Assembly: GCA_019057635.1 (NCBI GenBank)
Contig: DXJL01000156.1
Location: 46,105 to 70,104, forward strand
Reading direction: 5' to 3'
Length of the DNA stretch: 24,000 nucleotides
Origin: Candidatus Heimdallarchaeota archaeon
GTDB lineage: Archaea; Asgardarchaeota; Heimdallarchaeia; Hodarchaeales; Hodarchaeaceae
The notes under the pieces were generated by a model. It saw only the letters and a program-made list of their open reading frames with translations. It was not told the DNA's origin and did not search any database. The position numbers were made by a program, and so were the translations under genes. Shown here piece after piece: positions 3,067 to 24,000 of the stretch. Position 1 is the stretch's first letter, and every line of letters begins with the position of its first letter.

Positions 3067-3078
3067 AATTAATTATCA

Positions 3079-7356: not shown

Positions 7357-8172
7357 TTACTTCCGTTTCTTCAATATTAAAGCATAATGGTGATGGATAT
7401 TGGAAACAAAACTATATGGATAGCCATACGGTCTCAAATTTTTCTGATTTTGTAACCAAATTCGTTCTCCCAAAAAGGAATACCATTTTGTTAGACGTAG
7501 GGGGAGTTCGAAGGCGAGAGGTATCATTTCTCCCTTATCCCTGACATTTTGGATAAATACAATTAGATGGGCTTGGGGAAGTAATAGTTCATGAATTTTA
7601 GTGAATATATCTACCAATTCATTTAGGAACTCTTCTTTTTCTTCTATCATTCCTAAATCAAGAGGATTTTGCCCATATTGGAGGTCGAGACCTTTTTCTA
7701 AGCGTTCTTGTTGATTATAATCTTTTTTTTTCTTTAATATTCGCCAATATGGAGGAGAGGTGATGCAAAGAGAAAAAGATTGTTTTTCTAAAGTGGGTAG
7801 AAGTATTCGGACATCACCTTCAAGAACAGGGAACTTTGTTCTAGATTTTGCAGTTTTAAAATACTTAGGATAAAGTTCTATACCGATACCCTTTCTTGCT
7901 GTGTTTTCACAGGCAACTAAAGTCGACCCTGTCCCCAAAAATGGATCTAGTACTATTTCACCAGGTTTCGTGAAAAATTCGATGAATTCTTCTATCATAG
8001 AGGGAGGAAATGACGCAGGATGTAAATCAATCTCATGTGAAATGTCACTTGGTCTACCATCGGCTATAAACCAAGATTTTGTAAAACGAATCCACTCTTT
8101 CCCCGAGAGTGCGTTTAGCTTATTCCGAGGATCAATCTTTCCTGAATCTTTCATCACTATCCACTCTCTCAA
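7357..8172 (-). CDS. DNA (N4-C or N6-A) methyltransferase with PF01555-type signatures and motif I upstream of motif IV
   Basis: 271 aa. HPASFPPSMIEEFIEFFTKPGEIVLDPFLGTGSTLVACENTARKGIGIELYPKYF matches the HP..kP..L.erli...t.pgd.VLDPF.GsGtT...A..lgR..iGiEi block. The catalytic-loop motif CITSPPYW lies about 60 aa downstream. The listed start is TTG (8172); the first in-frame ATG is at 8154. Confidence 0.8.
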   Translation of the reverse strand: MREWIVMKDSGKIDPRNKLNALSGKEWIRFTKSWFIADGRPSDISHEIDLHPASFPPSMIEEFIEFFTKPGEIVLDPFLGTGSTLVACENTARKGIGIELYPKYFKTAKSRTKFPVLEGDVRILLPTLEKQSFSLCITSPPYWRILKKKKDYNQQERLEKGLDLQYGQNPLDLGMIEEKEEFLNELVDIFTKIHELLLPQAHLIVFIQNVRDKGEMIPLAFELPLRLTKWYSFLGERIWLQNQKNLRPYGYPYSFVSNIHHHYALILKKRK

Positions 8173-8400
8173 TCCATTTTTCTAAGTTAAAAATATATAA
8201 TAAAAAGGTACGGTGAGGAATCATGACTAAAATTGTCAGACAACTCTTGAAAACGAGTTCTGGACAGGATGAGTCACACATCCGCTATCCGGCAGGTTAG
8301 TAACACTAGAATGGATACTATCCGTTGGGACTACTTGGGAGTCTGTAGGATAACGTTGAAGAATATTCCGAGCCGCGTTATAATCGGCATTCAGATGAAC
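8173..8400 (-). ncRNA. Predicted omega-RNA (reRNA) region of the tnpB element
   Basis: Placed by analogy only. In IS200/IS605 elements the guide RNA scaffold overlaps the 3' end of tnpB and ends at the right end of the element. No structure was verified here. Confidence 0.25.
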
Positions 8401-9555
8401 CCCGCACCTCTGACAACAAAAGGAACCTCGCGATGTTCGATTCCGCTTATCTACATGGCCACACTTACTACATTGTTGGGAGGTATACGCTTCGTCTACC
8501 CGTACTACGGTCATTCCAACAAGTTTAGCCTTGTATTCAAGCATTTGAACCAATTGGGAGAAGGGAAGTTGAATAAACGACTGATTTATCCGTTTTCCTA
8601 AGTTGCAGTGCTGTTTCCATCCCGCATTATAACCAATGACTAAGGTCTTTATCTTCTGCTCTAAACAGTAGTTGATTATTCGACGGGAGATTTGATGGAA
8701 GATATCGTGGAGCTTATTAATCCGTCTACGATGTAGGCGTTGTATACGACGAGTAGTATACTGATGATTACAGATGGTGGCTAAGGATCGATAATGCGCA
8801 AGTTGCTTGTTATACCACTGATTAATGGTCTTAACTACCCCGCCTTTGACGAGTAAGCCGTCTGACGTAGTTACGAGATTGGTAAGACCGAGATCTATTC
8901 CCATAGTTCGGGATGGAAAATCAGAGGAAGGAAATGGTTGCGCTTGTACTTCATAGAGTAATTCTACCACAAAGCGATCATAAAATGGCACTAACCGCGC
9001 CCCAACACATGCTTCCGCTGTCAATGGAAGAGAATCCAGGGGAAAGGTCGGAAACCCTCGTGCCATGAGATTTCGAGTAAATAGAATTTGGCTATTACGG
9101 ATTCGAACTCTGCGCCGGGGAAAGCTCAGCATATACATTCCGTTCTTGGGTTTATATCTAGGGGTTCGGGGGCGGGTTCGAAACCGGCCAGGATCCTTTT
9201 TCCAAACTTTCAGCGCGTTAAAAAAGCTGCGCCAAGTTTGTTCTACCTGTCGTAGGACCTGTTGGGGTAAATAGCTATCAGACATGTCTTTTAATGCTAG
9301 ATACACTGGTTCGTGCTTGAGGCGATGATATAGGTTGGTATATTGGATCCATTTCCCTGTACTGAAAAATTCTTGTCGTACCTCATATGTCGCTCGATTA
9401 TAGAGATTTTTGGCACAGGTGCACAAATCGGTGAAAATTGGCCTAGGTTTCATTTGCATTCGGATAGCTAATTGGGGTTGAGGGTTTTTCTTGATACGCA
9501 TTCCCATTCCTTTTTGGAATTTTCACTCTTATAAACTTGAGACAAAGAGAGAGCG
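8200..9555 (-). mobile_element. tnpA-less IS200/IS605-family element carrying only tnpB (boundaries approximate)
   Basis: tnpB has no Y1/HUH transposase ORF on either side. Hand counts of 60-nt lines inside tnpB give 43-50% G+C (lines 8941 and 9121), against about 32% in flanking genes (lines 7621 and 9661). The composition step coincides with roughly 8.22 kb and 9.52 kb. Exact LE/RE hairpins were not resolved. Confidence 0.55.
8236..9507 (-). CDS. tnpB: TnpB (IS200/IS605 family OrfB, RNA-guided RuvC-type endonuclease)
   Basis: 423 aa. RuvC triad candidates are D in MGIDLGLTNLV, E in VDEAYTSQQC and D in LNADYNAARNI. A zinc ribbon CSKCG...CCQRCG sits between RuvC-II and RuvC-III. There is an N-terminal helical bundle (NLYNRATYEVRQEF). 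Confidence 0.9.
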   Translation of the reverse strand: MGMRIKKNPQPQLAIRMQMKPRPIFTDLCTCAKNLYNRATYEVRQEFFSTGKWIQYTNLYHRLKHEPVYLALKDMSDSYLPQQVLRQVEQTWRSFFNALKVWKKDPGRFRTRPRTPRYKPKNGMYMLSFPRRRVRIRNSQILFTRNLMARGFPTFPLDSLPLTAEACVGARLVPFYDRFVVELLYEVQAQPFPSSDFPSRTMGIDLGLTNLVTTSDGLLVKGGVVKTINQWYNKQLAHYRSLATICNHQYTTRRIQRLHRRRINKLHDIFHQISRRIINYCLEQKIKTLVIGYNAGWKQHCNLGKRINQSFIQLPFSQLVQMLEYKAKLVGMTVVRVDEAYTSQQCSKCGHVDKRNRTSRGSFCCQRCGVHLNADYNAARNILQRYPTDSQVVPTDSIHSSVTNLPDSGCVTHPVQNSFSRVV

Positions 9556-9639
9556 GTGAAATTGATGAATGTGATGAAATTGAACCCTTTTTCTTCCCGA
9601 CCAGTACTGATAAAAACTAGTGTTCTGACAAATTTGATC

Positions 9640-10287
9640 ATGCCTAAGATTCAGTGTATCATATTCGATGTGGATGGGACATTACTTGACAATACAAATT
9701 TTATAGTATCCCTATTTCAGGATACTGTAATAAAATATCTTGGACCAGCAAAAAGTATGTCTAGGAATGAAGTTTTGTCATTATGGGGTCCACCTGGAGA
9801 TGAAATCTTTAGAAAAGTATTTCCACCCGAGGTAGTTGACGAAGCTTGGTCAGAATTTCTCATTAAGTATCGTAACACTCATACAAAAACGGGTTTTTTT
9901 TCTCGTGTGGAATTGAATGACTTTCGGAAATATGTTCAATATCTAGTAATTTTTACTGGTAAATCGCGTTATACTAATACCATCTCTTTGGAAGAATTGG
10001 ATATTACTGATTGTTTCGACCTTATCTATACTGGAAGTGATGTGGAAAATTCAAAACCCCATCCTGATGCACTGTTCCTTATATTAGAAGATTTAGATCT
10101 GAATCCGGATAAAGTAATCTTTATTGGGGATAGCCATCTTGATATCATTGCAGGAAAGGCTGCAGGTATTCCAACCGCTGGGGCCGAATGGGGAGCAGTT
10201 GAGTTGGAAAAGCTCCTCCAAAGCAAGCCTGATCATGTTTTTAAGACCCCAAATGACTTTATCAAGTTCATAGAAAGCGCTTCATGA
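9640..10287 (+). CDS. HAD-superfamily phosphatase (phosphoglycolate phosphatase / PpaX-like)
   Basis: Motif I is IIFDVDGTLLD, immediately after the ATG at 9640. Motif II region is FTGKSR. Motif IV is IFIGDSHLDIIAGKAAG. The track ORF starts at GTG 9556, but the 28 extra residues precede the nucleophile motif, so ATG 9640 is preferred. Confidence 0.8.
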   Translation: MPKIQCIIFDVDGTLLDNTNFIVSLFQDTVIKYLGPAKSMSRNEVLSLWGPPGDEIFRKVFPPEVVDEAWSEFLIKYRNTHTKTGFFSRVELNDFRKYVQYLVIFTGKSRYTNTISLEELDITDCFDLIYTGSDVENSKPHPDALFLILEDLDLNPDKVIFIGDSHLDIIAGKAAGIPTAGAEWGAVELEKLLQSKPDHVFKTPNDFIKFIESAS

Positions 10288-10302
10288 TTTGGTCTTGATT
10301 TT

Positions 10303-12447
10303 ATGACTAAAAAAATGATTGAAACCACTTTTCCAATCATTGAAATAAGTCAACTCGCCATACCTGAACGCAGCAGCTATAAACCTATTTATCAGATTTC
10401 TAAATGGTTTGCCCGACGATCTTCGGCTATTTTTAGGGCCATTCTCCTTAGCTGTACTCTTAATTCATCAGAGAATTTCATGGACGAATTTTATAATGCT
10501 AAGGATAGTTTCAAAGATATAACTATTCTTGATCCATTTATGGGAGGAGGAACAACAATTATAGAAGCTTTAAGGCTTGGTATGCAATGTATCGGAGTTG
10601 ATATTAATCCAGTTGCATGGTTTATCACTAAAACTGAGAGTGCTATGGTCGATATAGAAGAACTTCAAGGTTTAATCACAAAATGTGAAGAAAACCTTGA
10701 AAATGATGTGAAAAAATGGTATAAAACCTCCTGTCCAGTATGTGAGAATCCCGCTGATATAATTTACACTCATTGGGTCAAATGCTTACCCTGTCCGACA
10801 TGTAATTCACTCATCCCTATGTTTCGTAATTTTCTTGTCGGTTATTTGGCTAATGAGGCAATCCTTCTCTGTCCCTCATGTTATGCAGTATTTCCTTCAA
10901 ATAAACCGATCACATCAGATAATAGATGTCCTGAATGTACTCAAAAATTCAAACCGAGTGCGGGTTTTAGAAAGGGTAGAAAATTGCTCGAATGTCCAGA
11001 TTGTGGAAATTCTGTCAATATCTTAAACTCTATTCGTTCGATTAAGACTCCTCTCGCTTGCAAACCGTTTGCCATTGAAGGATATTGTTGTCACTGTGCA
11101 AATGAGAAAGATCCTGATTCAGACCTTGCAAAATCTAGATATAAATTTATCAAAAGAGTTTCACAAACAGACAGAGATCTTTATAAAAAGGCTGAAGATC
11201 ACTGGAAGAATTATTCAGGCATCTTTCTTTGGCCAAAAGAAGATATCCCGATTGGCATGACAACAAAGGTTTTATTAAATCATAACTATACTAAATGGGC
11301 TGACCTATTTACATACCGTCAATTATTAACTTTGAGTTTAATTTTAAACTTCATTAAAGACATTGAAGAAGAACATCTCCAAGAGATGTTTTTAGCGGCA
11401 TTTCTAAACCTCTTAAATCACAACAATTCGTTTACAAGGTATTCTCCTAAAGGGCAAAAAGTCGAGGGGATATTTTCTCGCCATGATTTTCACCCTTTGT
11501 CTACATTTGCAGAAAATAATGTGTGGGGGACGAGATATGGACGTGGAACTTGGATCAAATGCCTCAAAAGATTACTAGAAGGGAAGAAGTACAACCTTGA
11601 ACCCTATAATTTTACGTCTATAAATTCCAAAGAAAAGATCTCTAAGCGTCGAAGAATCGTATCTGGTAAAATTGATGGAAAAGTATACAATGGAGAAATT
11701 GAGCATTTTCCTGATGAAAAAAGTAATTTACTTCTTCTCTGTCAAGACTCTGAAAAACTTCCCTTGTTTACAAATGGCGTTGACCTTTTGATCTCTGATC
11801 CCCCGTATGCTGATAATGTAAATTATTCAGAACTATCTGATTTCTTATATGTTTGGATTCGATTAATATTACAGGAAAAATATCCCTTCTTTATTCCAGT
11901 TGAGACTCCAAAATTGGGAGAGGCAATTGAAACAAAAAATAGAGGTACTGATTACTATTCCAAACTCTTTAATATTTTTAGAAGCTGTAAGAAACAGCTC
12001 ATCCCAGGTGGGTTGTTTGTATTTACATTTCATCATGGTAATCCTGATACTTGGTTTAAACTTGCTGAAGTAATTGAATCGTCTGGTTTTAGCGTGGTTA
12101 AAACGCATGTTTTGCAGAGTGAAGCCTTGAATGTTCTGAATATCCAAAATAAGAAAGCCGTGTCTTATGATTTAATTCTTGTCTGCCAGCAGAATCAACA
12201 AAAAAGGAAAAAACCCCATAATTTATCAGAATTTGTAGAACGGTTAAGCAAGAATTATGATAAGAAATTTACCTATTATACTGAGATAGGTCTCACAATA
12301 CATACAAATAATGTGATAGTTGTATTCTTTGGTGAATATTTGGAGCTTATTTCAAAGGTACAACCAGTAAACTGGTCAGACTCAATTGCTAAATCTGATC
12401 TAAGAAAAAGTTGTAAAGACCTTTACTCGAGTAAAATTATTGCCTGA
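10303..12447 (+). CDS. DUF1156/COG1743-type adenine-specific DNA methyltransferase with three inserted zinc ribbons
   Basis: 714 aa. N-terminal DUF1156-like block: MIETTFPIIEISQLAIPERS...ISKWFARRSSAIFRAILLS. Motif I: ILDPFMGGGTTIIEALRLGMQCIGVDINPVA. Three CxxC...CxxC pairs: CPVC/CPTC, CPSC/CPEC, CPDC/CCHC. Motif IV: LLISDPPYADNVNYSELSDFLYVWIR, the family-typical DPPY...Y..LSDF.YVW. Confidence 0.8.
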   Translation: MTKKMIETTFPIIEISQLAIPERSSYKPIYQISKWFARRSSAIFRAILLSCTLNSSENFMDEFYNAKDSFKDITILDPFMGGGTTIIEALRLGMQCIGVDINPVAWFITKTESAMVDIEELQGLITKCEENLENDVKKWYKTSCPVCENPADIIYTHWVKCLPCPTCNSLIPMFRNFLVGYLANEAILLCPSCYAVFPSNKPITSDNRCPECTQKFKPSAGFRKGRKLLECPDCGNSVNILNSIRSIKTPLACKPFAIEGYCCHCANEKDPDSDLAKSRYKFIKRVSQTDRDLYKKAEDHWKNYSGIFLWPKEDIPIGMTTKVLLNHNYTKWADLFTYRQLLTLSLILNFIKDIEEEHLQEMFLAAFLNLLNHNNSFTRYSPKGQKVEGIFSRHDFHPLSTFAENNVWGTRYGRGTWIKCLKRLLEGKKYNLEPYNFTSINSKEKISKRRRIVSGKIDGKVYNGEIEHFPDEKSNLLLLCQDSEKLPLFTNGVDLLISDPPYADNVNYSELSDFLYVWIRLILQEKYPFFIPVETPKLGEAIETKNRGTDYYSKLFNIFRSCKKQLIPGGLFVFTFHHGNPDTWFKLAEVIESSGFSVVKTHVLQSEALNVLNIQNKKAVSYDLILVCQQNQQKRKKPHNLSEFVERLSKNYDKKFTYYTEIGLTIHTNNVIVVFFGEYLELISKVQPVNWSDSIAKSDLRKSCKDLYSSKIIA

Positions 12448-12453
12448 TATTGA

Positions 12454-13236
12454 GTGTATAGCATGAGCGACGAATCCAAATACAAACTAGTAATAGGAGA
12501 TGTTAACCATGCTCTACCTAATATGGCAAAAAAACGTTTGTTTGATTTAATCATTGCTGACCCTCCATTTGGAATTTCCTTCAGCAAATCTTCTCATGAA
12601 TATGGAGCAGACGAATATCACCTATATAATGACGATTATACTACTGATAATTATTACGAATTTTCAAAAAAATGGATTTTAAATTGTTATAATGCGCTTA
12701 GTCCAACTGGAAGTCTTTATATTATATCTGGATGGACTAATCTTCAATACATTTTAAATGCACTTGAAACCACAGATTTTCATATGCTAAATCATGCGAT
12801 TTGGCATTTTTCATGGGGGGTCTACACGAAACGTCGCTTTGTTACAAGTCATTACCATATTTTATTGCTTGTAAAAAATCGTAAGAAATATCAGTTCTAT
12901 AAACAAAAGCATTATGATGAAGATGTTTTCTTTTGGCAGGAATACAATAGAGGGAATGACCCTCATCGTATTAAGGGACATCCTTGCCAACTTCCCATAG
13001 TTCTCCTAGAAAAATTAATTCTAACCTCAAGTTCTGTAGGTGATCTAGTAGGAGATGTATTTTCTGGATCTGGAGGGACGATTCTAGCAGCGCGTAAGAC
13101 TGAACGGGATGTAATAGGATTCGAACTTAGAGAAGAATATAAACCCATTATCGAAAAGAAAGCGTTGTTTGGGAAATCTCTATACAAATATAATCAGAAG
13201 AATACACTAGATTCTTACTTAGAAACACAAGAATGA
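12454..13236 (+). CDS. Beta-class N6-A/N4-C DNA methyltransferase (PF01555 type)
   Basis: 260 aa. Motif IV (DLIIADPPFGISF) is N-terminal and motif I (VGDVFSGSGGTILAARKTERDVIGFELREEY) is C-terminal, preceded by GHPCQLPIVLLEKLI. The GTG start at 12454 lies 6 nt after the upstream stop; the ATG alternative is at 12463. Confidence 0.85.
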   Translation: MYSMSDESKYKLVIGDVNHALPNMAKKRLFDLIIADPPFGISFSKSSHEYGADEYHLYNDDYTTDNYYEFSKKWILNCYNALSPTGSLYIISGWTNLQYILNALETTDFHMLNHAIWHFSWGVYTKRRFVTSHYHILLLVKNRKKYQFYKQKHYDEDVFFWQEYNRGNDPHRIKGHPCQLPIVLLEKLILTSSSVGDLVGDVFSGSGGTILAARKTERDVIGFELREEYKPIIEKKALFGKSLYKYNQKNTLDSYLETQE

Positions 13237-13253
13237 GAGTATCGTCTCTCAAG

Positions 13254-14999
13254 TTAGTCTGAAACCAACAGTAGTTCTTTATACGAAGAACATTCATATA
13301 GTTCTAATATTAAATCGTCGATTTCGTCTTTCTGCATAATTCGAGGCTGTGTTGATGGGTGAGAATTCTTGAATTGAGTTTCAATTGTCCCGAGAATCTT
13401 TTCATTATCCTCTGGAGGTCGAATTGGAAGACGTTTCAGATTTTTGATTGAAATTGCATTTGTATATTTTGATCCAAGGTTGAATTGATTTTCATAATAC
13501 CAATGCATAAGACTAGAATTCAGTATTGCTAAAATGTAGTAAAGATAAATTGGTTTTCTTCGCCATTGTTCCTTTAACCGTATATTGTAAACATTCTGAG
13601 TTGTAAGAGTGTTATTTAAATCAATTGCAGCACAGGGAAATTGCTTTATTTTCTGTAACACAATTTTTGGTGATTTGTAGACATTTCGATTCTTTTTAGA
13701 TTTAAATTCTATTGTGTCATTAAAAAAATGAGTAGATTTAATATAATAATGGTTAAAATCATCACCCGTAAGTATTGGTGTAATATGCTCTGACGATTTA
13801 CTGGGATTTATTAGGAATTGGATCAATAATTGACTTTTATCTAGAATCTCATGACATTGAGGACATTCAACTCTAGGTTTTCTACTTGATAATGGTACCC
13901 ACGATGTACAGAAATTACAGTACATTACTCCTCCTTTTTTACTTAGCTCTTCACCCCGCTGTATTGTTACATATTCTTCTAATCCTTTTGCATTTTTCTT
14001 AATTTGATCTAATACTTGGAAAGATGTTTTATCAGTTATGTTCGTAAATATATAATCAGTATTGGTCATGTAGACAGTTTGCAGAATTCTTTCCTCATTA
14101 TCTACAAGAATTTCATTCTTGGATTTGATTTTGTCAGTGAAGAGAGCTACAATTGATATGAATTCCTGTGTTACATGTTCAAATAAATCGTGAAAAAACA
14201 GAGATTTAATCCGATAGTTATGGAGAATGAATTTTCGCAGATTTGCATATTGATTAGACCGTGTTAAGTTTTTTGGGAGATATAATGCCAAGTAACCACT
14301 ATTTGATCTTAGTAAATATGTGCTTTGATATACAAATAGTTCAAACGAGTTCAAATTTCGTCTTGAACCTGATAGTTTAAATTTTTTGAAATAATGAGCT
14401 CTTTCCTCTTTTGTTAATTGACTTCCCCAAGGTGGATTTCCGATAATGAGGTCGAATCCAGGAAAATTCTCAGGTATCTTTTTCCAAGAAGTGAAATCAC
14501 TTTCTAGAAAATTCCCTCTCACTAGATTATTCTTCATCCACTTTGGAATAATTTCTTTGTCTATATCCCAGGAATGCCCTTTTAAAATTTCTTGGCATCC
14601 AAGCAGAGTTCTAGAATTTATTTCCATGCCATACAGGTTGTTTAATATTTTCCTTCGATAATTTTTTGTCTTATTTATTCCTAATTCGGCAAGTCGTTGA
14701 GTTATAGAATCAGAAACTCCAAGTAATAAATGATAGGACGTTATTATAAATTCTCCTTGTCCTACTGAACCGTCAAGGATCGTAAAGCTTAGTATGTACG
14801 ACAATAGTTCTTGTAAGACTTTGGTATTGCCTGAATTGATAATATTTTCAACAGATGAATGTGAAACATTAAACCTACGTCGCATTTGAAATATAATTGC
14901 TTGTTGAATGGCTCGATTCGTCAATTCAAATGCGAGTGAACTTGGAGTGTTAAATGCACCGAAGGATTTTTTGAATTCACTATTCTTCATTGGATCCAA
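13254..14999 (-). CDS. Gamma-class N6-adenine DNA methyltransferase (Eco57I/TaqI-like) with its own C-terminal target-recognition domain
   Basis: 581 aa. Motif X: FGAFNTPSSLA. Motif I: ILDGSVGQGEFI. Motif IV: LIIGNPPWG. Internal zinc ribbon: CNFC...CPQC. The C-terminal TaqI_C/HsdS-like TRD pattern is YLYYILAILNSSLMHWYY...IKNLKRLPI. No N-terminal nuclease domain. Confidence 0.85.
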   Translation of the reverse strand: MDPMKNSEFKKSFGAFNTPSSLAFELTNRAIQQAIIFQMRRRFNVSHSSVENIINSGNTKVLQELLSYILSFTILDGSVGQGEFIITSYHLLLGVSDSITQRLAELGINKTKNYRRKILNNLYGMEINSRTLLGCQEILKGHSWDIDKEIIPKWMKNNLVRGNFLESDFTSWKKIPENFPGFDLIIGNPPWGSQLTKEERAHYFKKFKLSGSRRNLNSFELFVYQSTYLLRSNSGYLALYLPKNLTRSNQYANLRKFILHNYRIKSLFFHDLFEHVTQEFISIVALFTDKIKSKNEILVDNEERILQTVYMTNTDYIFTNITDKTSFQVLDQIKKNAKGLEEYVTIQRGEELSKKGGVMYCNFCTSWVPLSSRKPRVECPQCHEILDKSQLLIQFLINPSKSSEHITPILTGDDFNHYYIKSTHFFNDTIEFKSKKNRNVYKSPKIVLQKIKQFPCAAIDLNNTLTTQNVYNIRLKEQWRRKPIYLYYILAILNSSLMHWYYENQFNLGSKYTNAISIKNLKRLPIRPPEDNEKILGTIETQFKNSHPSTQPRIMQKDEIDDLILELYECSSYKELLLVSD

Positions 15000-15648: not shown

Positions 15649-16359
15649 ATGGTCGAAACAATATATCTTACCGATATGTACCAAAAAGAGTTTGAAGCGG
15701 AAGTTATTTCTGTAACTGATGATAAATTCATTGTACTTGATCAAACAGCCTTTTATCCTAAGTCGGGAGGAGTTGCTAATGATGAAGGCCACCTTATCCG
15801 TGACAATGATGAGTTTAATGTTGTTTATGTAGGCAAATTTAGTGGTAAAATTTCTCATGAAGTAGATAAGCCAGGTTTAAAAGTGGGTGATAAAATAATT
15901 GGAAAATTAGATTGGGATCGCCGTTACACATTGATGCGATATCACACAGCTGCCCATGTAATATCTGGCGCTTTTTATCATAATTTAAATGCTAAAATAA
16001 CTGGGAATGAGATTTCAATTGACCAAGGAAGAGTGGATTTTAATTTGGAAAACTTTGACCGAGCACTTATCGAAAAAGAAGTTAACAATTCGAACATAAT
16101 AATTTCCAAAGATCATTCTGTTGAAGTGTATTCTCTTGATAGGAAGGATGTTGAGTCAGATCCTGATCTAACGAAACTAGCAATGGGTTTACCTAAAAAT
16201 ATTCAAAAATTAAGAATTGTTGATATCAAAAATTTTGACAGACAACCTGATGGCGGGTGTCATGTCAGATCGCTAAAGGAAATAGGTAATATAAAGATTA
16301 AAAAACTTGTGAATAAAGGAAAAAATAATAGACGTTTATATTTCACAATCGAATCTTAA
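15649..16359 (+). CDS. alaX: Alanyl-tRNA editing protein AlaX-M (tRNA synthetase second additional domain)
   Basis: 236 aa. The zinc-binding HxxxH is in RYHTAAHVISG and the CxxxH-type motif is in PDGGCHVRS. An N-terminal beta-barrel-like region (FYPKSGG) is present. The size fits AlaX-M. Confidence 0.85.
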   Translation: MVETIYLTDMYQKEFEAEVISVTDDKFIVLDQTAFYPKSGGVANDEGHLIRDNDEFNVVYVGKFSGKISHEVDKPGLKVGDKIIGKLDWDRRYTLMRYHTAAHVISGAFYHNLNAKITGNEISIDQGRVDFNLENFDRALIEKEVNNSNIIISKDHSVEVYSLDRKDVESDPDLTKLAMGLPKNIQKLRIVDIKNFDRQPDGGCHVRSLKEIGNIKIKKLVNKGKNNRRLYFTIES

Positions 16360-16371
16360 AGGTGAAAAAAA

Positions 16372-17727
16372 ATGGAAATAGTAGTCATAGGAGGAAATGC
16401 TGCTGGCTTAAGTGCAGCTAGTGCTATCAGGAGAATACACCACGATTGGCAGATCGATGTATATGAAAAAGATCAATATATCTCATTCGGTTCGTGCGGT
16501 ATCCCGTACTATGTTTCAGAAACCGTTGAAAATCTTCATAGTTTAATCACTCTCACGCCTGAAATAGTTGAGAAGAAAAGAAAAATACCCGTTCATTTGA
16601 TGAACGAGGTAATTGATGTTGATTTTAACTCAAAAACCTTAACAATTTTAGATAAGAATACAAAATCTCAGTATAATCGTTCTTATAAAATACTAATTAT
16701 CGCTACTGGAGCACACGCAACCTCCTCCCCAGAATTAAATCTTGAACATGAACGAATATTTTTCGTACATAATCTTAGTCATGCTGAAAAATTAAGAACT
16801 TTCTTGAAGACCCCTAACCATAAAATTCAATCTGTGGCCATAATCGGAGCAGGATACATAGGATTAGAGATGTTGGAAGCATATAAAGCACAAGGCATTA
16901 ATGATATTACGATTATTGGGCCTCGTCTTGTTTTTCGATCACAAAGCCAAGAATATTTACTTAAAGAGCTGAAATCTCATGAGATTAAGGCTATCCTTGG
17001 GAAAAGAGTAAGTCAACTAGAAGGTCTATCAAAGGACAGAATTAAAATTTATCTTGATGATCATTCCTCAATAGAAACAGATTTATTACAAATTTCCATA
17101 GGTGTTTCACCTGCAACTGACATCTTTATGAATAAAGGGTTACACATGCTGTCAAATGGGGCAATCTTAACAGATGAATATATGAAAACTAATATTTCTG
17201 ATGTTTATGCAGCTGGTGATTGTATTGCATCATACCACCAAATTTTGAAACAACATGTATATTATCCTTTAGCGCCTGCTGCAAATAAACAGGGACGTTT
17301 AGCTGGATCAATAATTGCTGGGAAAGAAGTTAGCCCTTATCCGGGTATCGTCGGAACTTCAATCTTTAAAGTTCTTGATCTTTATTGCGCGAGAACTGGA
17401 ATTTCATTAGAACAGGCTGTAGAAATGGGTTTTGATGCAGAATCTATACTGATTGAAAATAATGAGATTGCTCATTATATGGGTACAAAGAAGATGTCAG
17501 TCTTTTTGGTTTTCGACCCTAAAAGTCATCTTCTATTGGGAGCGGAAATAACTGCTCCTACTGCGCTTGGTGCAAAAAAAATTGATACCTTGGCCACAGC
17601 TTTGTCTGCAAAGATGAAAATTGAGGATGTTCAGTCATTAGATTTGGCTTATGCTCCTCCATTCGCCCCAGTTTGGGATCCAATTTTAGTAGCCGCTAAT
17701 ATCGCAAGTAAGAAGCTAGCAAAATGA
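16372..17727 (+). CDS. FAD-dependent pyridine nucleotide-disulfide oxidoreductase, CoA-disulfide reductase / NADH oxidase type
   Basis: 451 aa. FAD fold: VVIGGNAAGLSAA. Single redox-active Cys motif: SFGSCGIPYY. NAD(P) fold: VAIIGAGYIGLEM. Also AAGDC and a C-terminal dimerisation domain. SD-like aaggtga lies upstream. Confidence 0.85.
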   Translation: MEIVVIGGNAAGLSAASAIRRIHHDWQIDVYEKDQYISFGSCGIPYYVSETVENLHSLITLTPEIVEKKRKIPVHLMNEVIDVDFNSKTLTILDKNTKSQYNRSYKILIIATGAHATSSPELNLEHERIFFVHNLSHAEKLRTFLKTPNHKIQSVAIIGAGYIGLEMLEAYKAQGINDITIIGPRLVFRSQSQEYLLKELKSHEIKAILGKRVSQLEGLSKDRIKIYLDDHSSIETDLLQISIGVSPATDIFMNKGLHMLSNGAILTDEYMKTNISDVYAAGDCIASYHQILKQHVYYPLAPAANKQGRLAGSIIAGKEVSPYPGIVGTSIFKVLDLYCARTGISLEQAVEMGFDAESILIENNEIAHYMGTKKMSVFLVFDPKSHLLLGAEITAPTALGAKKIDTLATALSAKMKIEDVQSLDLAYAPPFAPVWDPILVAANIASKKLAK

Positions 17728-19097: not shown

Positions 19098-20075
19098 ATG
19101 AAGATTCATTGTGATAGTGATTGCCGACCATGTGTCTTTGAAGGGGGGCCAAGTCGTGATATTTCAGATCAATTCGAAGCTAATTATTGCCCTACCTGCA
19201 GGAAAGCTTTTTTCTGTGATGTAGGAGTAATTCAACACTTCTCTGCCGCTAGTAGCGTTTCCTATTCTTGTGTGGATTGCAATACTCCTCTACTGACAAA
19301 ATCTCTTGAAGAAATTAGTATGCTTCAAGCTCGTTTCTCCTTGAAGAATCAATCACATTCTAGTCGTCTCTCTTATAAACAAAAATTTATTCCCAAAAAG
19401 GATTTAGCGTCTCTTAAATCGCTTTCAATGTTATACGATATTAAATCTGTAAGTACTTATCACCGCTCACTGATTGATGAAATCCGTCATATTTCAGGGT
19501 TATCACCACAGGTTATCAGAAATTTTGCCCGGGAGTATGGGATTAGCGAGACGATTATTTCTAACCTATCTGGAGAACGAGAAGAAATTCTTCTCACACT
19601 TGCCAGCTTACAACCAAAATTCATTGAAATACTGTATGCAATAATAATTGGTCGCGATCCTTCTATCGAAGGAGGAATAGCGTTAAGATTCACTGTTTAC
19701 TCTGAAAATATTGGAGATATTGTTTTTATTCAGCCATCTGGGGCATTAATAGAAAGCGGTCCATTTGACCTAATCGCTTATGATCATCAAGGTATGATGA
19801 TTTGGATTTTTTGCATACAAGAAACTGTCGATATTGACGATATAAGTAAAATCGTAAGCCCAATATTAAATCAAACATTAGATGAATTTAAGGGTATTTC
19901 AAGTATTTATATTGTCGCTCAAGCATTTTCGTGGGTATCTAAACAAATTTTAAAGAAATATCAAGGTATTATTATCAGAGAGGGAGAAAAAACACGAACT
20001 ATTCCTTTCAAGTTATGGACTGAGGAAAAAAAATCAGATCAAGCTCAAATCTTATTTAAATCGGAAATCCTCTGA
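19098..20075 (+). CDS. Uncharacterised protein: N-terminal Cys-cluster/zinc ribbon, central HTH-like segment, C-terminal restriction-endonuclease-like (Mrr_cat-like) region
   Basis: 325 aa. Cys at positions 5, 9, 12, 31, 34, 40, 58 and 61, including CPTC...CVDC. HTH-like segment: GLSPQVIRNFAREYGISETIISNLSG. C-terminal FDLIAYDHQGMMIWIFCIQETVDIDDISKIV...IYIVAQAFSWVSKQILKKY resembles the Mrr-type core layout but has QET where (Q/E)xK is expected. SD-like caggtg lies upstream of the ATG. Confidence 0.6.
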   Translation: MKIHCDSDCRPCVFEGGPSRDISDQFEANYCPTCRKAFFCDVGVIQHFSAASSVSYSCVDCNTPLLTKSLEEISMLQARFSLKNQSHSSRLSYKQKFIPKKDLASLKSLSMLYDIKSVSTYHRSLIDEIRHISGLSPQVIRNFAREYGISETIISNLSGEREEILLTLASLQPKFIEILYAIIIGRDPSIEGGIALRFTVYSENIGDIVFIQPSGALIESGPFDLIAYDHQGMMIWIFCIQETVDIDDISKIVSPILNQTLDEFKGISSIYIVAQAFSWVSKQILKKYQGIIIREGEKTRTIPFKLWTEEKKSDQAQILFKSEIL

Positions 20076-20091: not shown

Positions 20092-20622
20092 TTGTCTTCC
20101 CCGACACAAGTAAATGGTTTTCATCCGTATTATAAAATAGTATTCCTTGGAAAACAAGGAGTTGGGAAAACCTCAATTATAAGAAGACTAGTTGCTTCAA
20201 ATGTTGATACAGAATATGTACCTACTCTTGGAATTTACTATTATAATTTAGAATTAGAGTATCAGAAACACAATTACTATCTCCAATTCTGGGATATATC
20301 TAATAGCTTGGATTATCAAATAAAGAACTTCTTGCAGAATGCAGCAGTCGTCGTATTGATTTTTGACTTTGCTGATAGGGAATCCCACATCTATGTAAAT
20401 CAGGTTTTTGAGACTATTAAAGAAGCAAACCCCTTCATGAAATTCCTTCTTGTTGGAAATCGATCAAAAGGGGAAAAAGAAAAACCTCCCAAGAATTTGA
20501 ATAATTTAGTGAATGAACACAATTTAACAATATACCCTATGTCCCCTCAAAATAACTCGGGGATGTCTTTGCTATTACAAGCAATTGTACATGATCTACC
20601 TCGTCCTACCGAGAGAGATTAG
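20092..20622 (+). CDS. Ras-superfamily small GTPase-like protein with degenerate G3 and G4 motifs
   Basis: 176 aa. The TTG start is forced: an in-frame TGA at 20083-20085 and no other start codon before the P-loop. G1 GKQGVGKT is at 20149-20172. G2 Thr is in YVPTLGI. G3 is WDISNS (20290-20307) instead of WDTAGQ. G4 is NRSK (20458-20469) instead of NKxD. Starts 16 nt after the upstream gene. Confidence 0.8.
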   Translation: MSSPTQVNGFHPYYKIVFLGKQGVGKTSIIRRLVASNVDTEYVPTLGIYYYNLELEYQKHNYYLQFWDISNSLDYQIKNFLQNAAVVVLIFDFADRESHIYVNQVFETIKEANPFMKFLLVGNRSKGEKEKPPKNLNNLVNEHNLTIYPMSPQNNSGMSLLLQAIVHDLPRPTERD

Positions 20623-20628
20623 ATCCTC

Positions 20629-21030
20629 TTATTTCCATTCCTCTTCATCATTTGGTAAGCAAGAGGCTTGGACAATTTCACACTCCCACCAGCGTGTACC
20701 AACTTCAAATGGGCAGCTATCATCCGTGATTTGGCACTTTCTCTCCTCTGTTAAGTATAAACAAAAACTTGACATTGTTAGACGTAGATTCATTTTCCCT
20801 GGTGCTTCTCCCATCTCATACTTCTTTGATATGGTTTCCTTTATTTCTTGATAATTCTGAATCTGTAAGGTGGTGATAATACTTCCAGTTTTAAAAGTAA
20901 TTCCCCCAGCAAGAGAATCATCGAATTCAAGAAATTTAAATAACTGTCTTTGCAGATTATCAAGAATTTCGTCATCGATATCCATTACGCCCATGAGTTG
21001 TAGCATTTCGCGCAATTTCTTTCTAAACAT
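20629..21030 (-). CDS. Hypothetical 133-aa protein with a C-terminal four-Cys cluster
   Basis: This is the longest ORF in an otherwise 577-bp gap. A GGTG (complement of 21040-21045) lies about 9 nt upstream of the ATG. The C-terminus is CQITDDSCPFEVGTRWWECEIVQASC. No family was recognised. Competing + strand ORFs (20585-20851, 20870-21073) are shorter and low-complexity. Confidence 0.5.
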   Translation of the reverse strand: MFRKKLREMLQLMGVMDIDDEILDNLQRQLFKFLEFDDSLAGGITFKTGSIITTLQIQNYQEIKETISKKYEMGEAPGKMNLRLTMSSFCLYLTEERKCQITDDSCPFEVGTRWWECEIVQASCLPNDEEEWK

Positions 21031-21110
21031 CCAACTTTACACCAGATATTTTATGGGGGAGGGAGTAAAATAATCATAAATCCCATTTTCTACGTATGTA
21101 TCATGTACGA

Positions 21111-21130
21111 GATTATATTTATAATATTGC
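21111..21130. promoter_or_regulatory. TATA-rich element in the divergent intergenic region between 21030(-) and 21200(+)
   Basis: gattatatttataatattgc lies about 70-90 nt upstream of the TTG at 21200 and about 80-100 nt upstream of the minus-strand ATG. It could serve either or both divergent genes. This is inference only. Confidence 0.25.
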
Positions 21131-21199
21131 TAACGGATTCGGTACAAGAATTTTTGTCTTTCTCGAAAACTTTTTCGATTCTCTAAAGGTGTTACAATT

Positions 21200-24000
21200 T
21201 TGACAGACCATGATTTTCAACCAGTTGCATGGGTTTCACTCGCCTCTCTATCAGGATTAAGCCTGGTGTCTTTAGGACAACCAGGATTAAAATCTGTGGA
21301 CGAACAAGTATATACAGGTGGTTTAACAGCTGTACAACAGATGTTGGGTGGAGAAATTGGTGGAGATACGAGCCGTTTTGTTGGGGGCAGTCATAACAAT
21401 AAAACTGGGAGATTTCTTGTAAAAACACCTGATTATGAACTTGTTGGCCAGTTTTTATTAATTTCTCGTCAGCATATTGCCGTAGCGCCTGTTCTTGTCG
21501 AGTTTTATGAGCAATTGGTTACATTCTTTGCTGAGGAGACCCTAAAAACTGATCTTGTTGAACGTGCAGAGAAGGAATTTACTGCGTTTGGAATCTCGGA
21601 TGTTTTAGATTTCTTTCTGAGTAGTATAAAGAAAGCCAGGAAAAAAGTATCAATCCCTCATAATGATAATCTTTTCAGTCAATCACTTGAAGAAAGCCTT
21701 GAAAAATCAATCAGTGATTATGAATACTCTGCTTCCTTGGTTAAAATTTCAAATCTAAAAGGAAAGTTTCATGAAATTGTTCCAACGATCCAAGCTGAAA
21801 GAAAAGATCTACTAGAAAAATTTACACATGAATTAATGGAATTCCTGGCAAGTGAATATCCTCACTCGGTTGTAATGTATTCTAAAGCGAGTTCGCTTCT
21901 AAAAGAAGTAAGAAAGTATGTTGAAAGAAACCTGGGTACTTTCAAATTTGATGCTGCATTGCAAGAAGTGATCCGTGAGTTCGAAGAGAACGATCTTCGA
22001 ATGTTTCTTGAAGATATTTCCTTACATGAAGTTACTAAGAAAAACCTTCGTTCTCGTATTGAAGATGCGATTTTTCGTAAATATCTCAAAGAGTTTCCCC
22101 TTTATTTTTTAGCAAACCCAGAAATAACCTCCTTTAACACCGAAGTAGGTCATTTAACGACACGAATAAACGAAAATTATGATATTGGGGGTACACTATC
22201 GCGAATTGCAGAAAAAATGATCGAAGATAAGATTTTTGCTAATTTACTAATACCTTACATAAGATATTTTTGTGAAGAATTTTCTGCAGGATTAACTCCT
22301 TCTGCATGGAAGTATATGCAAATCGTTTTTAAATTAATAAGTAATGAAACAAAAATTGATATCTTAGATGTATTACCCGCGATGAAAGATGAAATTCCTC
22401 CTTCTCATTTCAGTACTATCGAAAAAATGATGACTAAATTCAAGTTGACCGGAACCAAATTATCTCCGCTTTCTTTCACAGTAAAAAAAGCCAGTGATGT
22501 ACTTCCTTTTTATCGTGCTCTTTTTTCGTCTCTTGCTTTCGGTGTAAATGCAGTTATCTCGGAATTAGCATTCAGTGAGGAGAACCCAAATAATCTGCTT
22601 GAAACATTGAATAAAAATCTTGATCTTTTAGCTCGTGATCTTCACCAATCTCATGGAATTTTCAAAGTATATTCCTATTTAGAGAGCGTCCAGTCAAAAG
22701 TCTCATTTTCTTTTGCATTCCCCGATGACAAGATTACTTCGGAAAAAATCTTGAGTAATCAGCTTACAATCGATGAGTTGATGCAATCGGTGATTGATGC
22801 AAATGTGAAGAGCTTGTCAGAAGAAGGACAGCTTATTAAAAAGAAAATTACAGCGTTTCGTTCAGAATTCGATGATGAGATTAAGAATATTCTAAGATAT
22901 TTATCTCAAAAACCGCAGGATATTTCTAAAGGGTACCAACTCAAGATTGCTAAGCGACACTCGTTAAAATTTACTATAAGGCCCATATCCGAAGTAAATT
23001 CAAACATAACGAAAAATCTTTCTGAATTTGATAAATTAATGACAGACCTGCAAGAAAATCTTAAGAAATCGAAAAATGCTTCAAAAGAATTTGTAAATGG
23101 AAAATTAAAAGAGCAGGAACTTAAAAAAGTTTTGAAGAACCAAGGATTTATCAAAGACACTGAGAAAGAATTCCGAAAAATTACTGAAAAAATGGAATCA
23201 GCCGTAACAAAAAGTTACAGCAATGTATTATCTCTGGTAGAAAAGCAAGTAAAGGGTGTGTCAAAAGAAGCCTCAAAAACGTTTATGCAAGCCTGCAATT
23301 TCTTAAATATAAACAGAAAAAATCTTGCTAATCAAGATAGTAAATTAATTTCGGCCTCCTCTGCGTCAATGAAAAGCATTCAAAAATCTATCACAGAAAG
23401 TTTCGAAAAAGACCCATTCTTTGAATTTAAGAACGTAGGACGATATTATTTTTATGCAATATACAGATCTTTACCTAATAATTTACAGTCAGAAGTTTTA
23501 GACGCTCTTGTTACCAAAAAGAGTTATCCTTTTTTGAAAGAATCGATTACTAAAGTTACATCGTCATCCGATATATTCCGTAGTTATGCTAAAGTATTAG
23601 AAACGCATGCTTATGAGCTCTTATCGAATGTGTTTAGTTCTTCTGGGAAACTTGTCGGAAAAAACGTATTTAAATCTGATCCAGAAGTTAAAATAGTAAT
23701 TCAAAATAATATCCCTGTTCCAACACTTGAAGTGGGTTATCTTACAAATGAAAGGGCAGTTAAATCGTTAAAATCCCTTTATGGAACACGAATTGTTGTT
23801 GAAACAGAAAAATCAGAGAATAATGCCATTTATAGAATTTTACTTGTTGTTCCAAGTTTTAAAAGTGATTATAGTACAATGAAACATTTCTGGGAAACCA
23901 AGGATTGGACCCTGAAAAAGACTGTAATTACTCTGAGTTGGTTTTCCTTATTAGCACAGAACAAATTCTATTTGGACCTTCTTCGTTTCTCATCAGATTT
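21200..24000 (+). CDS. Large uncharacterised protein (more than 933 aa, 3' end beyond the window) with an N-terminal Roadblock/LC7/longin-like domain
   Basis: Frame 2 is open from the TAA at 21131-21133 to nt 24000 with no stop. It is not in the supplied track, presumably because it has no stop in the window. TTG at 21200 is preceded by aaaggtg (21185-21191) with an 8-nt spacer; the first in-frame ATG is at 21341. My translation begins (M)TDHDFQPVAWVSLASLSGLSLVSLGQPGLKSVDEQVYTGGLTAVQQMLGGEIGG... The remainder looks mostly helical, with a coiled-coil-like Lys/Glu stretch around 23.0-23.3 kb. Confidence 0.8.
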   Translation, partial: MTDHDFQPVAWVSLASLSGLSLVSLGQPGLKSVDEQVYTGGLTAVQQMLGGEIGGDTSRFVGGSHNNKTGRFLVKTPDYELVGQFLLISRQHIAVAPVLVEFYEQLVTFFAEETLKTDLVERAEKEFTAFGISDVLDFFLSSIKKARKKVSIPHNDNLFSQSLEESLEKSISDYEYSASLVKISNLKGKFHEIVPTIQAERKDLLEKFTHELMEFLASEYPHSVVMYSKASSLLKEVRKYVERNLGTFKFDAALQEVIREFEENDLRMFLEDISLHEVTKKNLRSRIEDAIFRKYLKEFPLYFLANPEITSFNTEVGHLTTRINENYDIGGTLSRIAEKMIEDKIFANLLIPYIRYFCEEFSAGLTPSAWKYMQIVFKLISNETKIDILDVLPAMKDEIPPSHFSTIEKMMTKFKLTGTKLSPLSFTVKKASDVLPFYRALFSSLAFGVNAVISELAFSEENPNNLLETLNKNLDLLARDLHQSHGIFKVYSYLESVQSKVSFSFAFPDDKITSEKILSNQLTIDELMQSVIDANVKSLSEEGQLIKKKITAFRSEFDDEIKNILRYLSQKPQDISKGYQLKIAKRHSLKFTIRPISEVNSNITKNLSEFDKLMTDLQENLKKSKNASKEFVNGKLKEQELKKVLKNQGFIKDTEKEFRKITEKMESAVTKSYSNVLSLVEKQVKGVSKEASKTFMQACNFLNINRKNLANQDSKLISASSASMKSIQKSITESFEKDPFFEFKNVGRYYFYAIYRSLPNNLQSEVLDALVTKKSYPFLKESITKVTSSSDIFRSYAKVLETHAYELLSNVFSSSGKLVGKNVFKSDPEVKIVIQNNIPVPTLEVGYLTNERAVKSLKSLYGTRIVVETEKSENNAIYRILLVVPSFKSDYSTMKHFWETKDWTLKKTVITLSWFSLLAQNKFYLDLLRFSSD

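Follow-up and report, generated by a model that had tools for sequence, protein, structure and literature searches.

Asgard archaea are close relatives of eukaryotes, and their genomes contain many Roadblock, longin, and small-GTPase genes. Roadblock/longin modules serve as regulators of small GTPases. In phylogenomics by Eme et al. in 2023, the Asgard lineage to which the protein described here belongs is reportedly placed near the origin of eukaryotes. Among the proteins built on these folds, MglB, the bacterial Roadblock/LC7 regulator of the Ras-like GTPase MglA, stands alone, has a length of ~130-160 aa and a match to PF03259, and is encoded by a gene beside mglA. The eukaryotic LAMTOR2/p14 and LAMTOR3/MP1 are stand-alone subunits of ~120 aa that make up the Roadblock heterodimer of Ragulator, a scaffold for Rag GTPases; they are held by LAMTOR1, and it is the Roadblock domains of the Rag GTPases to which they bind. 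The Roadblock/longin proteins described in Asgard archaea can be recognized from their sequences, and they are either small proteins or direct fusions with a GTPase or TRAPPC3 domain; multi-domain combinations of Roadblock/longin domains with GTPases and "domains of unknown function" have also been reported in these archaea (Tran et al. 2024, PMC10933270). GTPases bind Roadblock/longin dimers in an evolutionarily conserved orientation (PMC10933270). Asgard regulators are hard to match to their GTPases because they are seldom encoded in operons (PMC10933270).

The stretch of 24,000 nucleotides analyzed here, referred to as the window, encodes a giant protein with a predicted Roadblock/longin-superfamily domain at its N-terminus, and a Rab-like small GTPase is encoded two genes upstream. 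Together with two further lineage-specific orphans, the giant and the GTPase form a conserved cluster, which provides a gene set for testing.

The Giant Protein and Its Family

The giant gene (21200..24000, + strand) begins with a TTG start codon at position 21200 and overruns the end of the window, in which 933 of its 955 codons can be translated; the full length of 955 aa was obtained from a database protein of 100% identity (P0001). All 51 homologues come from Hodarchaeales/Heimdall-type MAGs, none of them (0/51) carries a Pfam domain, and the members of the family have a length of ~955-980 aa. Searches with the whole protein gave nothing meaningful in Pfam, NCBIfam, and PADLOC, and a PDB profile search with the whole family returned only chance matches or compositional matches to coiled coils and helical bundles. 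A description of the 955-aa family was not found in the literature searched. Judged from these sequence data, the family is an unannotated orphan restricted to Hodarchaeales-type Asgard genomes. An HMMER profile of the N-terminal domain, which was run exhaustively against 1.84 billion representatives, retrieved only 29 proteins, nearly all of which are the N-termini of ~960-980 aa proteins or their fragments; no stand-alone, bacterial, or eukaryotic relatives of the domain were present among these representatives.

In the full-length AF2 model (pLDDT 87.3, pTM 0.68), the N-terminal domain is followed by an all-helical body at approximately residues 127-828 (21578..23683, + strand), with long Lys/Glu-rich helices around residues 524-697. 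A second small α/β domain is then predicted at residues 829-898 (23684..23893, + strand), having the order β-β-α-β-β-α and followed by terminal helices. The preliminary description had remarked on a fusion to more than 800 further residues, which is correct, as ~840 residues of the 955-aa protein lie beyond the domain. An internal duplication, relating the N-terminal domain to the C-terminal α/β domain, was also considered and rejected, because hhalign detects no sequence similarity between the two. In a Foldseek search of the full-length model against the PDB, there were 0 matches at E ≤ 1e-3. The joining of a Roadblock-like domain to a helical protein of this size, for which the PDB has no counterpart, would represent a new architecture.

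Predicted Fold of the N-Terminal Domain

The preliminary description had read positions 21224-21538 as a Roadblock/LC7- or longin-like domain on the basis of the expected layout of its secondary structure. These positions correspond to residues 9-113, with a translation identical to the sequence that was quoted, and the AF2 domain model and Foldseek place the domain at residues 9-126 (21224..21577, + strand). The domain-only AF2 model (pLDDT 82.3, pTM 0.75) shows strands at residues 9-15 and 21-26, a helix at residues 35-53, strands at residues 59-62, 67-75, and 80-88, and helices at residues 97-115 and 119-126. The resulting order, β-β-α-β-β-β-α(-α), is the same in the full-length and domain-only models, both of which reproduce the layout proposed earlier, and the strands and the C-terminal helix of the domain model have pLDDT values of 86-95.

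When the domain model was compared with the PDB by Foldseek, the best 50 matches were all Roadblock-fold chains, 11 of them at E ≤ 1e-3, and these chains span four groups, LAMTOR2, LAMTOR3/MP1, MglB, and Streptomyces Roadblock/LC7. The top match is LAMTOR2 (5x6u_B; E 1.5e-4, TM 0.62/0.68, probability 1.00); MglB (6izw_C, E 8e-4) and the Roadblock/LC7 protein 3kye are also matched with a probability of 1.00. With TM scores of 0.5-0.68 and rmsd values of 3-5 Å, the matches to LAMTOR2/p14, MP1, MglB, and Roadblock/LC7 bear out the structural likeness that had been suggested for residues 1-130. The top matches of the full-length model are weak and are enriched in longin/Roadblock proteins, which include NPRL subunits of GATOR1 (E 0.1-1.2), the Lst4 longin (4zy8_C, E 0.48), Mon1-Ccz1, Fuzzy-Inturned, and a Lokiarchaeota Roadblock-Longin protein (8yqg_A, E 0.67).

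The Roadblock elements present in the domain model are the sheet, the central helix, and the C-terminal helix. Only 8 residues precede strand 1, leaving the domain without an N-terminal helix, and except for this missing helix the order of its elements agrees with the Roadblock description in PMC10933270. Because the N-terminal helix is absent, the connectivity predicted by AF2 is of the longin type, β-β-α-β-β-β-α-α, and the second C-terminal helix (119-126), as in longins, may stand in place of the missing one. Collectively, the models make it highly probable that residues 9-126 adopt a Roadblock/longin fold.

Sequence profiles, by contrast with the structural comparison, did not bear out the proposed membership in PF03259 or the longin families: residues 1-147 have no match to these or any other Pfam family at E ≤ 1 in hmmscan, and PF03259 is found in 0/43 members of the giant family. 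NCBIfam gave nothing meaningful for the domain, and a PDB sequence-profile search with it yielded no match beyond chance. An hhalign comparison of the 24-sequence domain alignment with a small LAMTOR2/DYNLRB1/MglB/MP1 set resulted in a probability of 0.5% and an E value of 0.13; a Pfam check of the control sequences in this set assigned three of them to PF03259 and MP1 to PF08923. The domain can be regarded as cryptic because the sequence-level Roadblock signal is absent. It would thus be a hidden member of the fold, missed by all sequence profiles yet nearly invariant across the family. Even without a link to a GTPase, this suggests that Pfam-based surveys undercount the Asgard proteins of Roadblock/longin fold.

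Conservation of the Central Helix

Conservation in the giant protein is by far the highest in this domain, where 48 of 107 positions do not vary among 43 sequences, compared to 66 of 840 elsewhere. Conservation within the domain peaks at the small-residue-rich, hyper-conserved central helix of residues 34-56 (21299..21367, + strand; DEQVYTGGLTAVQQMLGGEIGGD), where the main group shows no variation at 16 of 23 positions. Q36, G40, G41, A44, E52, and G54 are unchanged even in distant members that have ~20% overall identity. It corresponds to the one helix that links strand 2 to strand 3 in Roadblock proteins as described in PMC10933270. It is also the least confident part of both AF2 models, with pLDDT values of 36-56 in the full-length model and 62-67 in the domain-only model. 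The low pLDDT of an invariant helix in a monomer model is consistent with an interface that depends on a partner. In the MglA-MglB and Mon1-Ccz1-Ypt7 structures, the central helix reportedly lies in the dimer interface and on the GTPase-binding face.

Outside the helix, the main group conserves Arg59 and Arg71, which the distant paralogues have lost. An invariant G-x-P-G follows strand 2, and the β1-β2 loop has the pattern S-x-[SA]-G-[LM]. The GAP longins of the FLCN/NPRL2/SMCR8 class carry a GP motif in or just before strand 2, near the arginine finger (PMC12290439). This motif was looked for in the domain and is absent from the β1-β2 loop, the required position.

Neighboring Genes and Gene Order

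The open reading frame at 20092..20622 (+ strand), which had been taken for a small GTPase, does encode one: a Rab-like protein of 176 aa that matches Pfam Ras with E 2.5e-18, and also Roc and Arf. Its description as adjacent to the giant gene needs qualifying, as the gene is on the same strand (+) but two genes upstream, with p133 on the opposite strand (-) in between. The closest PDB relatives of the GTPase are Ypt6/Rab6, Sec4, Rab3, Rab1, Rab7, and Ran, with E values of 1e-24 to 1e-19. Its G1 motif and switch-I Thr are intact. The G3 and G4 motifs are degenerate in this lineage. Other orthologues have D[VI]SGN at G3, but the subclade of the window has DISNS, in which the Gly is lost and a 2-aa deletion lies alongside. 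At G4, most orthologues have GNKxE and the protein of the window GNRSK, and the NKxD aspartate is therefore missing family-wide. The protein has no C-terminal Cys. The family has Asn at the position of the Ras catalytic Gln after DxxG (DVSGN); GTPases that lack the catalytic Gln typically need an external regulator.

The orphan p325 (19098..20075, + strand), with a Cys-rich N-terminus, ends 16 nt before the start of the GTPase gene and is located directly upstream of it in every case seen; it is likely the operon partner of the GTPase. All 61 p325 homologues are Hodarchaeales-type, a Pfam domain is found in 0/61, and no match to the PDB was obtained at E ≤ 10. Having neither a PDB nor a Pfam match, p325 was rejected as a known GTPase regulator. 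The p133 gene (20629..21030, - strand) encodes 133 aa with four cysteines that are invariant in the alignment. It is divergent from the giant gene, and the 169-bp intergenic region between the two (21031..21199, from the coordinates) is presumed to be a shared promoter region. The 50 p133 homologues are likewise all Hodarchaeales-type, with Pfam domains in 0/50, and their locus tags place them beside the giant gene. Pfam, PDB, and hhalign searches gave no support to the idea that p133 is a partner of the Roadblock, longin, or V4R/TRAPPC3-like kind.

In all main-group loci with enough flank (~20), the genes for p325, the GTPase, p133, and the giant follow one another in this order, over a range of giant identity from 41% to 96%. 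In the main group, the giant gene is directly followed on the same strand by a gene for an Mtq2/HemK2-like methyltransferase (MTS), the fifth gene of an order conserved in ~20 genomes. Linkage to the GTPase is confined to this group of close orthologues. The genomes that have this order also share a larger syntenic block, which extends from L-PSP and PCC as far as gyrB, and the GTPase-giant adjacency may therefore reflect inherited gene order only. A defence island was ruled out because PADLOC gave no matches and the cluster lies within a conserved core-genome block. At the three distant loci, L006, L007, and L008, no Ras-type GTPase occurs within 6 kb and p325 is absent. The methyltransferase is kept in L006 and L008, and a p133 homologue is kept in L008, near the giant homologue P0065; L007 keeps neither of them. 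Evolution is much faster in the GTPase, with an identity of 33-47%, than in the near-invariant domain, with 65-75%. A 1-aa deletion at the start of the giant's helix and the 2-aa deletion in switch II of the GTPase co-occur; they are confined to one clade and therefore do not provide independent evidence.

Possible Roles of the Domain

As an overall explanation, a predicted Roadblock/longin domain with an inferred role as a GTPase platform can be given somewhat less than an even chance. As in MglB, Ragulator, Mon1-Ccz1, and TRAPP, the domain would probably use its helix and sheet edge for pairing, either with another copy of itself or with a related domain. The platform so formed would have a binding partner, for which a small GTPase is the most plausible candidate. 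The helical body of ~700 residues, together with the C-terminal α/β domain, would serve as a scaffold or effector arm. By analogy to these systems, we tentatively propose that the domain is a putative GTPase-binding platform of some kind. The Rab-like GTPase two genes upstream is the candidate client, and its specific assignment to the giant is doubtful. It is unlikely that p325, the GTPase, p133, and the giant constitute a dedicated Hodarchaeales small-GTPase module with the giant as a GEF/GAP scaffold; in such a module, the giant platform would perhaps be paired with its own C-terminal α/β domain or with p133. If the GTPase link is true, the locus would offer a concrete four-protein system bearing on the pre-eukaryotic rise of large GTPase regulators.

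The same fold could instead have a role that does not involve GTPases, either as a dimerization or assembly module or in the binding of another partner, for which p133 and the methyltransferase are candidates; the GTPase would then be present by inherited synteny and work with p325. This alternative is a genuine possibility, if a rather less than even one. Dynein light chain LC7 and the SNARE longins are examples of Roadblock/longin proteins with GTPase-unrelated roles. Functions of this kind are recognized for some Roadblock/longin proteins (PMC10933270). As regards gene context, p133 and the giant gene are divergent in every case and a p133 homologue persists in L008, the methyltransferase gene follows the giant gene in the main group, L006, and L008, the GTPase and p325 are missing together from all three distant loci, and the GTPase gene starts 16 nt past p325. 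However, physical contact with p133 or the methyltransferase is itself putative, L007 keeps neither gene, and p133 has no detectable Roadblock or longin signal. Moreover, Mtq2 is a housekeeping gene, and the adjacency of the methyltransferase could therefore be mere synteny.

An improbable alternative is that the domain is a ligand sensor, a profilin/PAS/GAF-like sandwich in which the Gly-rich loops GxPG, TGG, GGExGGD, RFxGGS, and KTGRF form a pocket controlling the body. The loops and helix are unusually dense in invariant Gly, Asp, Arg, and Ser, and the weak Foldseek matches of the full-length model include PAS, GAF, and sensor domains. However, PAS/GAF sensors account for 0 of the best 50 domain-only matches, and no known ligand-binding motif was recognized in the domain. 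In addition, the distant paralogues lose RFxGGS and KTGRF but keep the helix motif, which points to the helix rather than to a loop pocket. Finally, it is very improbable that the Roadblock likeness is a generic two-layer α/β sandwich or an AlphaFold artefact devoid of evolutionary and functional meaning, as might be suspected from the absent sequence-profile signal, the moderate TM and rmsd values, the low confidence of the central helix, and the shallow alignments (24-43 sequences), because the topology recurred when AF2 was run independently on a second alignment, the strands and C-terminal helix of the domain model are confident, the match list is homogeneous with no other fold class in the best 50, and the element order is the one published for Roadblock, the N-terminal helix apart.

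Comparison with Known Systems

MglB and the giant's domain share the core of the fold (6izw_C, E 8e-4, TM 0.55-0.58; many chains of 6hjm, 3t12, and 1j3w in Foldseek), a small-residue-rich central helix, and a small GTPase encoded nearby. Unlike MglB, however, the giant's domain has no PF03259 signal and no N-terminal helix and is fused to ~830 more residues. In contrast to the mglA-mglB pair, the giant and GTPase genes, which are on the same strand, are parted by the opposite-strand p133.

LAMTOR2/p14 and LAMTOR3/MP1 provide the best structural matches (5x6u_B, plus chains of 1veu, 5y39, and 6ehp), with a sequence identity to the giant's domain of 12-16%. The likeness also concerns the predicted arrangement of a platform inside a larger scaffold.

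The Asgard Roadblock/longin proteins, such as Thor-RB (7f8m), MKD1-RB, and the Lokiarchaeota Roadblock-Longin protein (8yqg), share the phylum-level setting and the fold superfamily, and 7f8m_B and 8yqg_A are among the weak full-length Foldseek matches. The giant family differs from them in its absent Pfam signal, its length of ~955 aa, its helical body, and its occurrence in Hodarchaeales-type genomes only.

With respect to the eukaryotic longin GAP/GEF subunits, the body of the giant is all-helical, not DENN or winged-helix, and its domain has GxPG after strand 2 and no GP motif of the longin GAPs. The general layout is nevertheless similar: NPRL2/3 of GATOR1, FLCN-FNIP/Lst7-Lst4, SMCR8-C9orf72, and Mon1-Ccz1 have an N-terminal longin-type domain and then a large C-terminal region. 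Such subunits lead the weak matches of the full-length model (9o5a_C with E 0.1, 4zy8_C, 6ces_N, 8adl_S, and 9lol_B, all at E ~0.1 or above). If the four genes did form the dedicated module considered above, with the giant as its GEF/GAP scaffold, then Mon1-Ccz1, GATOR1/FLCN, and TRAPPII, the large Rab/Rag regulators of eukaryotes that are based on longin/Roadblock domains, would have an archaeal counterpart in the giant, which might even be related to them.

Predicted Fold of the N-Terminal Domain

The giant protein is encoded by an open reading frame that initiates with TTG at 21200 on the + strand, spans 933 codons inside the window, and continues past its end. Since the database protein P0001, which is identical across all 933 of these residues, is 955 aa long, only 22 codons lie outside the window and ~840 residues are C-terminal to the domain. 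The preliminary description had placed a Roadblock/LC7- or longin-like domain at this N-terminus, and the sequence it quoted for residues 9-113 (positions 21224-21538) matches the translation exactly. The layout it had proposed is borne out by AlphaFold2 models and by Foldseek matches to Roadblock-fold chains, which make a Roadblock/longin fold highly probable. The full-length model (pLDDT 87.3, pTM 0.68) agrees with a domain-only model from a deeper alignment (pLDDT 82.3, pTM 0.75), in which strands 9-15 and 21-26 are followed by a helix (35-53), strands 59-62, 67-75, and 80-88, and helices 97-115 and 119-126. A Foldseek search of the PDB with the domain model yielded 11 matches at E ≤ 1e-3, and all of the top 50 were Roadblock-fold chains; the best was LAMTOR2/p14 (5x6u_B; E 1.5e-4, TM 0.62/0.68), and the others included MP1, MglB of Myxococcus and Thermus, and a Streptomyces Roadblock/LC7 protein. 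With the full-length model, no match reached E 1e-3; the weak list was enriched in GATOR1 NPRL subunits, the Lst4 longin, a Lokiarchaeota Roadblock-Longin protein, Ragulator, Mon1-Ccz1, and Fuzzy-Inturned.

In Asgard Roadblock structures, a five-stranded sheet lies between one helix, which follows strand 2, and paired N- and C-terminal helices (PMC10933270). The domain model has no N-terminal helix and two C-terminal helices, which corresponds to longin connectivity. Because Roadblock matches are combined with longin connectivity, we assign the domain to the Roadblock/longin superfamily as a whole and to neither branch in particular.

The expected profile signal did not appear by Pfam, PDB profile search, or hhalign. 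Residues 1-147 matched no Pfam family at E ≤ 1, so that the domain does not belong to PF03259 by sequence, and Pfam gave nothing consistent across 43 family members. The PDB profile search returned no match for the domain, and hhalign against an alignment of LAMTOR2, DYNLRB1, MglB, and MP1 (sequences checked with Pfam) gave only E 0.13. The domain is cryptic, being Roadblock/longin by predicted structure and carrying no sequence-level signal.

Conservation and Family Distribution

The closest public relative of the window is the MAG 'Candidatus Heimdallarchaeota archaeon B3_Heim', with 96% protein identity; the G+C content of the window is ~35%. All 51 homologues occur in Hodarchaeales/Heimdall-type Asgard MAGs, for which NCBI labels vary, and none of the 51 carries a Pfam domain. 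An exhaustive domain-profile search of 1.84 billion representative proteins gave only 29 matches, nearly all of them N-termini of ~960-980-aa proteins or their fragments, including distant members with ~20% overall identity. No description of this family was found in the literature searched.

Conservation within the protein is highest in the N-terminal domain, where 48 of 107 positions are invariant among 43 sequences, compared to 66 of 840 elsewhere. W11, G19, S24, G26, G29, Q36, G40, G41, A44, E52, and G54 are invariant in all profile-search matches, distant members included. The most conserved stretch of all is the central helix, residues 34-56 (DEQVYTGGLTAVQQMLGGEIGGD; window 21299-21367, +), with 16 of 23 positions invariant. 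It is also the lowest-confidence region in both models (pLDDT 36-56 in the full-length and 62-67 in the domain-only model), an unusual pairing within one helix. The low pLDDT fits a surface that requires a partner. In the structures of MglA-MglB and Mon1-Ccz1-Ypt7, the equivalent helix lies in the dimer interface and on the face to which the GTPase binds. Helix 34-56 corresponds to the helix that joins strands 2 and 3 in Roadblock/longin proteins, whose dimers are reported to bind GTPases with an orientation that is conserved (PMC10933270).

Residues ~127-828 are all-helical in the AlphaFold2 model, and the long Lys/Glu-rich helices of this body gave only compositional matches in the PDB profile search. 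A second small alpha/beta domain (residues 829-898; window 23684-23893, +) is modeled as beta-beta-alpha-beta-beta-alpha, followed by terminal helices. It could serve as a pairing partner of the N-terminal domain; hhalign detected no sequence similarity between the two.

Genomic Context

The giant gene and the gene for a Rab-like GTPase belong to one conserved cluster. The small GTPase that had been reported beside the domain is genuine (Pfam Ras, E 2.5e-18; 20092-20622, +), but it does not directly adjoin the giant gene, as the p133 gene intervenes. The order p325, GTPase, p133, giant, and Mtq2/HemK2-like methyltransferase is found at every main-group locus with enough flank (~20; giant identity 41-96%). 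In the same genomes, the syntenic block extends from L-PSP and PCC upstream through gyrB downstream, so that adjacency alone does not prove a functional link between GTPase and giant protein.

The nearest solved relatives of the GTPase are Rab6/Ypt6, Sec4, Rab3, Rab1, Rab7, and Ran, and it has no C-terminal cysteine. Ras has DTAGQ at G3, with the catalytic Gln, and the canonical G4 is NKxD. The orthologue family has DVSGN in place of DTAGQ and hence misses the catalytic Gln; G4 is GNKxE in most orthologues. In the subclade of the window (with L009-L012), the G3 glycine is lost (DISNS, with an adjacent 2-residue deletion) and G4 is GNRSK, whereas other orthologues keep DVSGN. The GTPase of this subclade may be weak or non-switching. 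Overall, the GTPase is conserved to a much lower degree than the N-terminal domain of the giant protein (33-47% versus 65-75% identity).

Both p325 (325 aa; 19098-20075, +) and p133 (133 aa; 20629-21030, -) are Hodarchaeales-only orphans with no Pfam or PDB relatives. The former, which has eight invariant Cys within its first ~61 residues, ends 16 nt 5' of the GTPase start, a gap that makes it the likely operon partner of the GTPase. The latter lies on the opposite strand, with the GTPase ending 6 nt before its stop; it and the giant gene are always transcribed divergently, here from either side of a 169-bp gap. The p133 protein carries four invariant cysteines (C90, C99, C106, and C117), and its C-terminal EEWK is conserved. 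Neither a Zn-binding nor a V4R/TRAPPC3-like fold, both of which were considered for p133, found support.

The window also contains a DNA-modification cluster (7357-14999) comprising N6_N4 methylases at 7357-8172 (-), 10303-12447 (+, with DUF1156), and 12454-13236 (+), an Eco57I/TaqI_C-type enzyme (13254-14999, -), and an embedded TnpB/Cas12f-like OrfB_IS605 gene (8236-9507, -). A 396-aa protein (3079-4269, -) with weak nSTAND3 NTPase and C-terminal Csa3-like matches adjoins a 393-aa ORF without a family match (4745-5926, +). A stand-alone AlaX-like editing protein (15649-16359, +; tRNA-synt_2c C-terminal region and tRNA_SAD) is followed by a pyridine nucleotide-disulphide oxidoreductase (16372-17727, +).

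Possible Role of the Domain and Comparison with Known Systems

We infer that the N-terminal domain would dimerise and build a binding platform. If MglB, Ragulator, Mon1-Ccz1, and TRAPP are taken as analogues, its partner would most likely be a small GTPase, and such a role is tentatively preferred. The obvious candidate client would be the upstream Rab-like GTPase, because an enzyme without the catalytic Gln may need an external regulator; that this GTPase is the specific client is rather unlikely.

The main alternative, itself a possible reading, is that the domain acts as an assembly module and binds a partner that is not a GTPase, such as p133 or the methyltransferase, and that the GTPase works with p325. 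Neither a Ras-type GTPase nor p325 occurs within 6 kb of the giant homologue in any of three distant members (L006, L007, and L008). The Mtq2/HemK2-family (PF05175 MTS) methyltransferase gene, past the window end, lies directly 3' of the giant gene on its strand in every main-group relative whose downstream flank is long enough (L001 8925-9548 among them) and in two of the distant members (L006 8958-9599 and L008 9026-9697). As a neighbour of the giant gene, it is conserved more widely than the GTPase is. L008 also keeps a p133 homologue (4912-5304); L007 keeps neither gene. In L006, the giant homologue has as its divergent neighbour a gene (2870-5725, -) for a 951-aa protein that resembles a polytopic membrane protein and is not a homologue of p133. 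A ligand-sensor function for the domain is improbable and ranks below the assembly module. Least probable is that the Roadblock resemblance is an artefact, which would accord with the silent profiles but not with the uniform Foldseek list.

Longin GAPs are marked by a GP motif (PMC12290439), which the domain does not have. With longins it shares connectivity, although the structural matches are weak. It at least resembles MglB and LAMTOR2/3, and has neither a PF03259 match nor the N-terminal helix. Multi-domain Roadblock/longin proteins of Asgard archaea are already known (PMC10933270).
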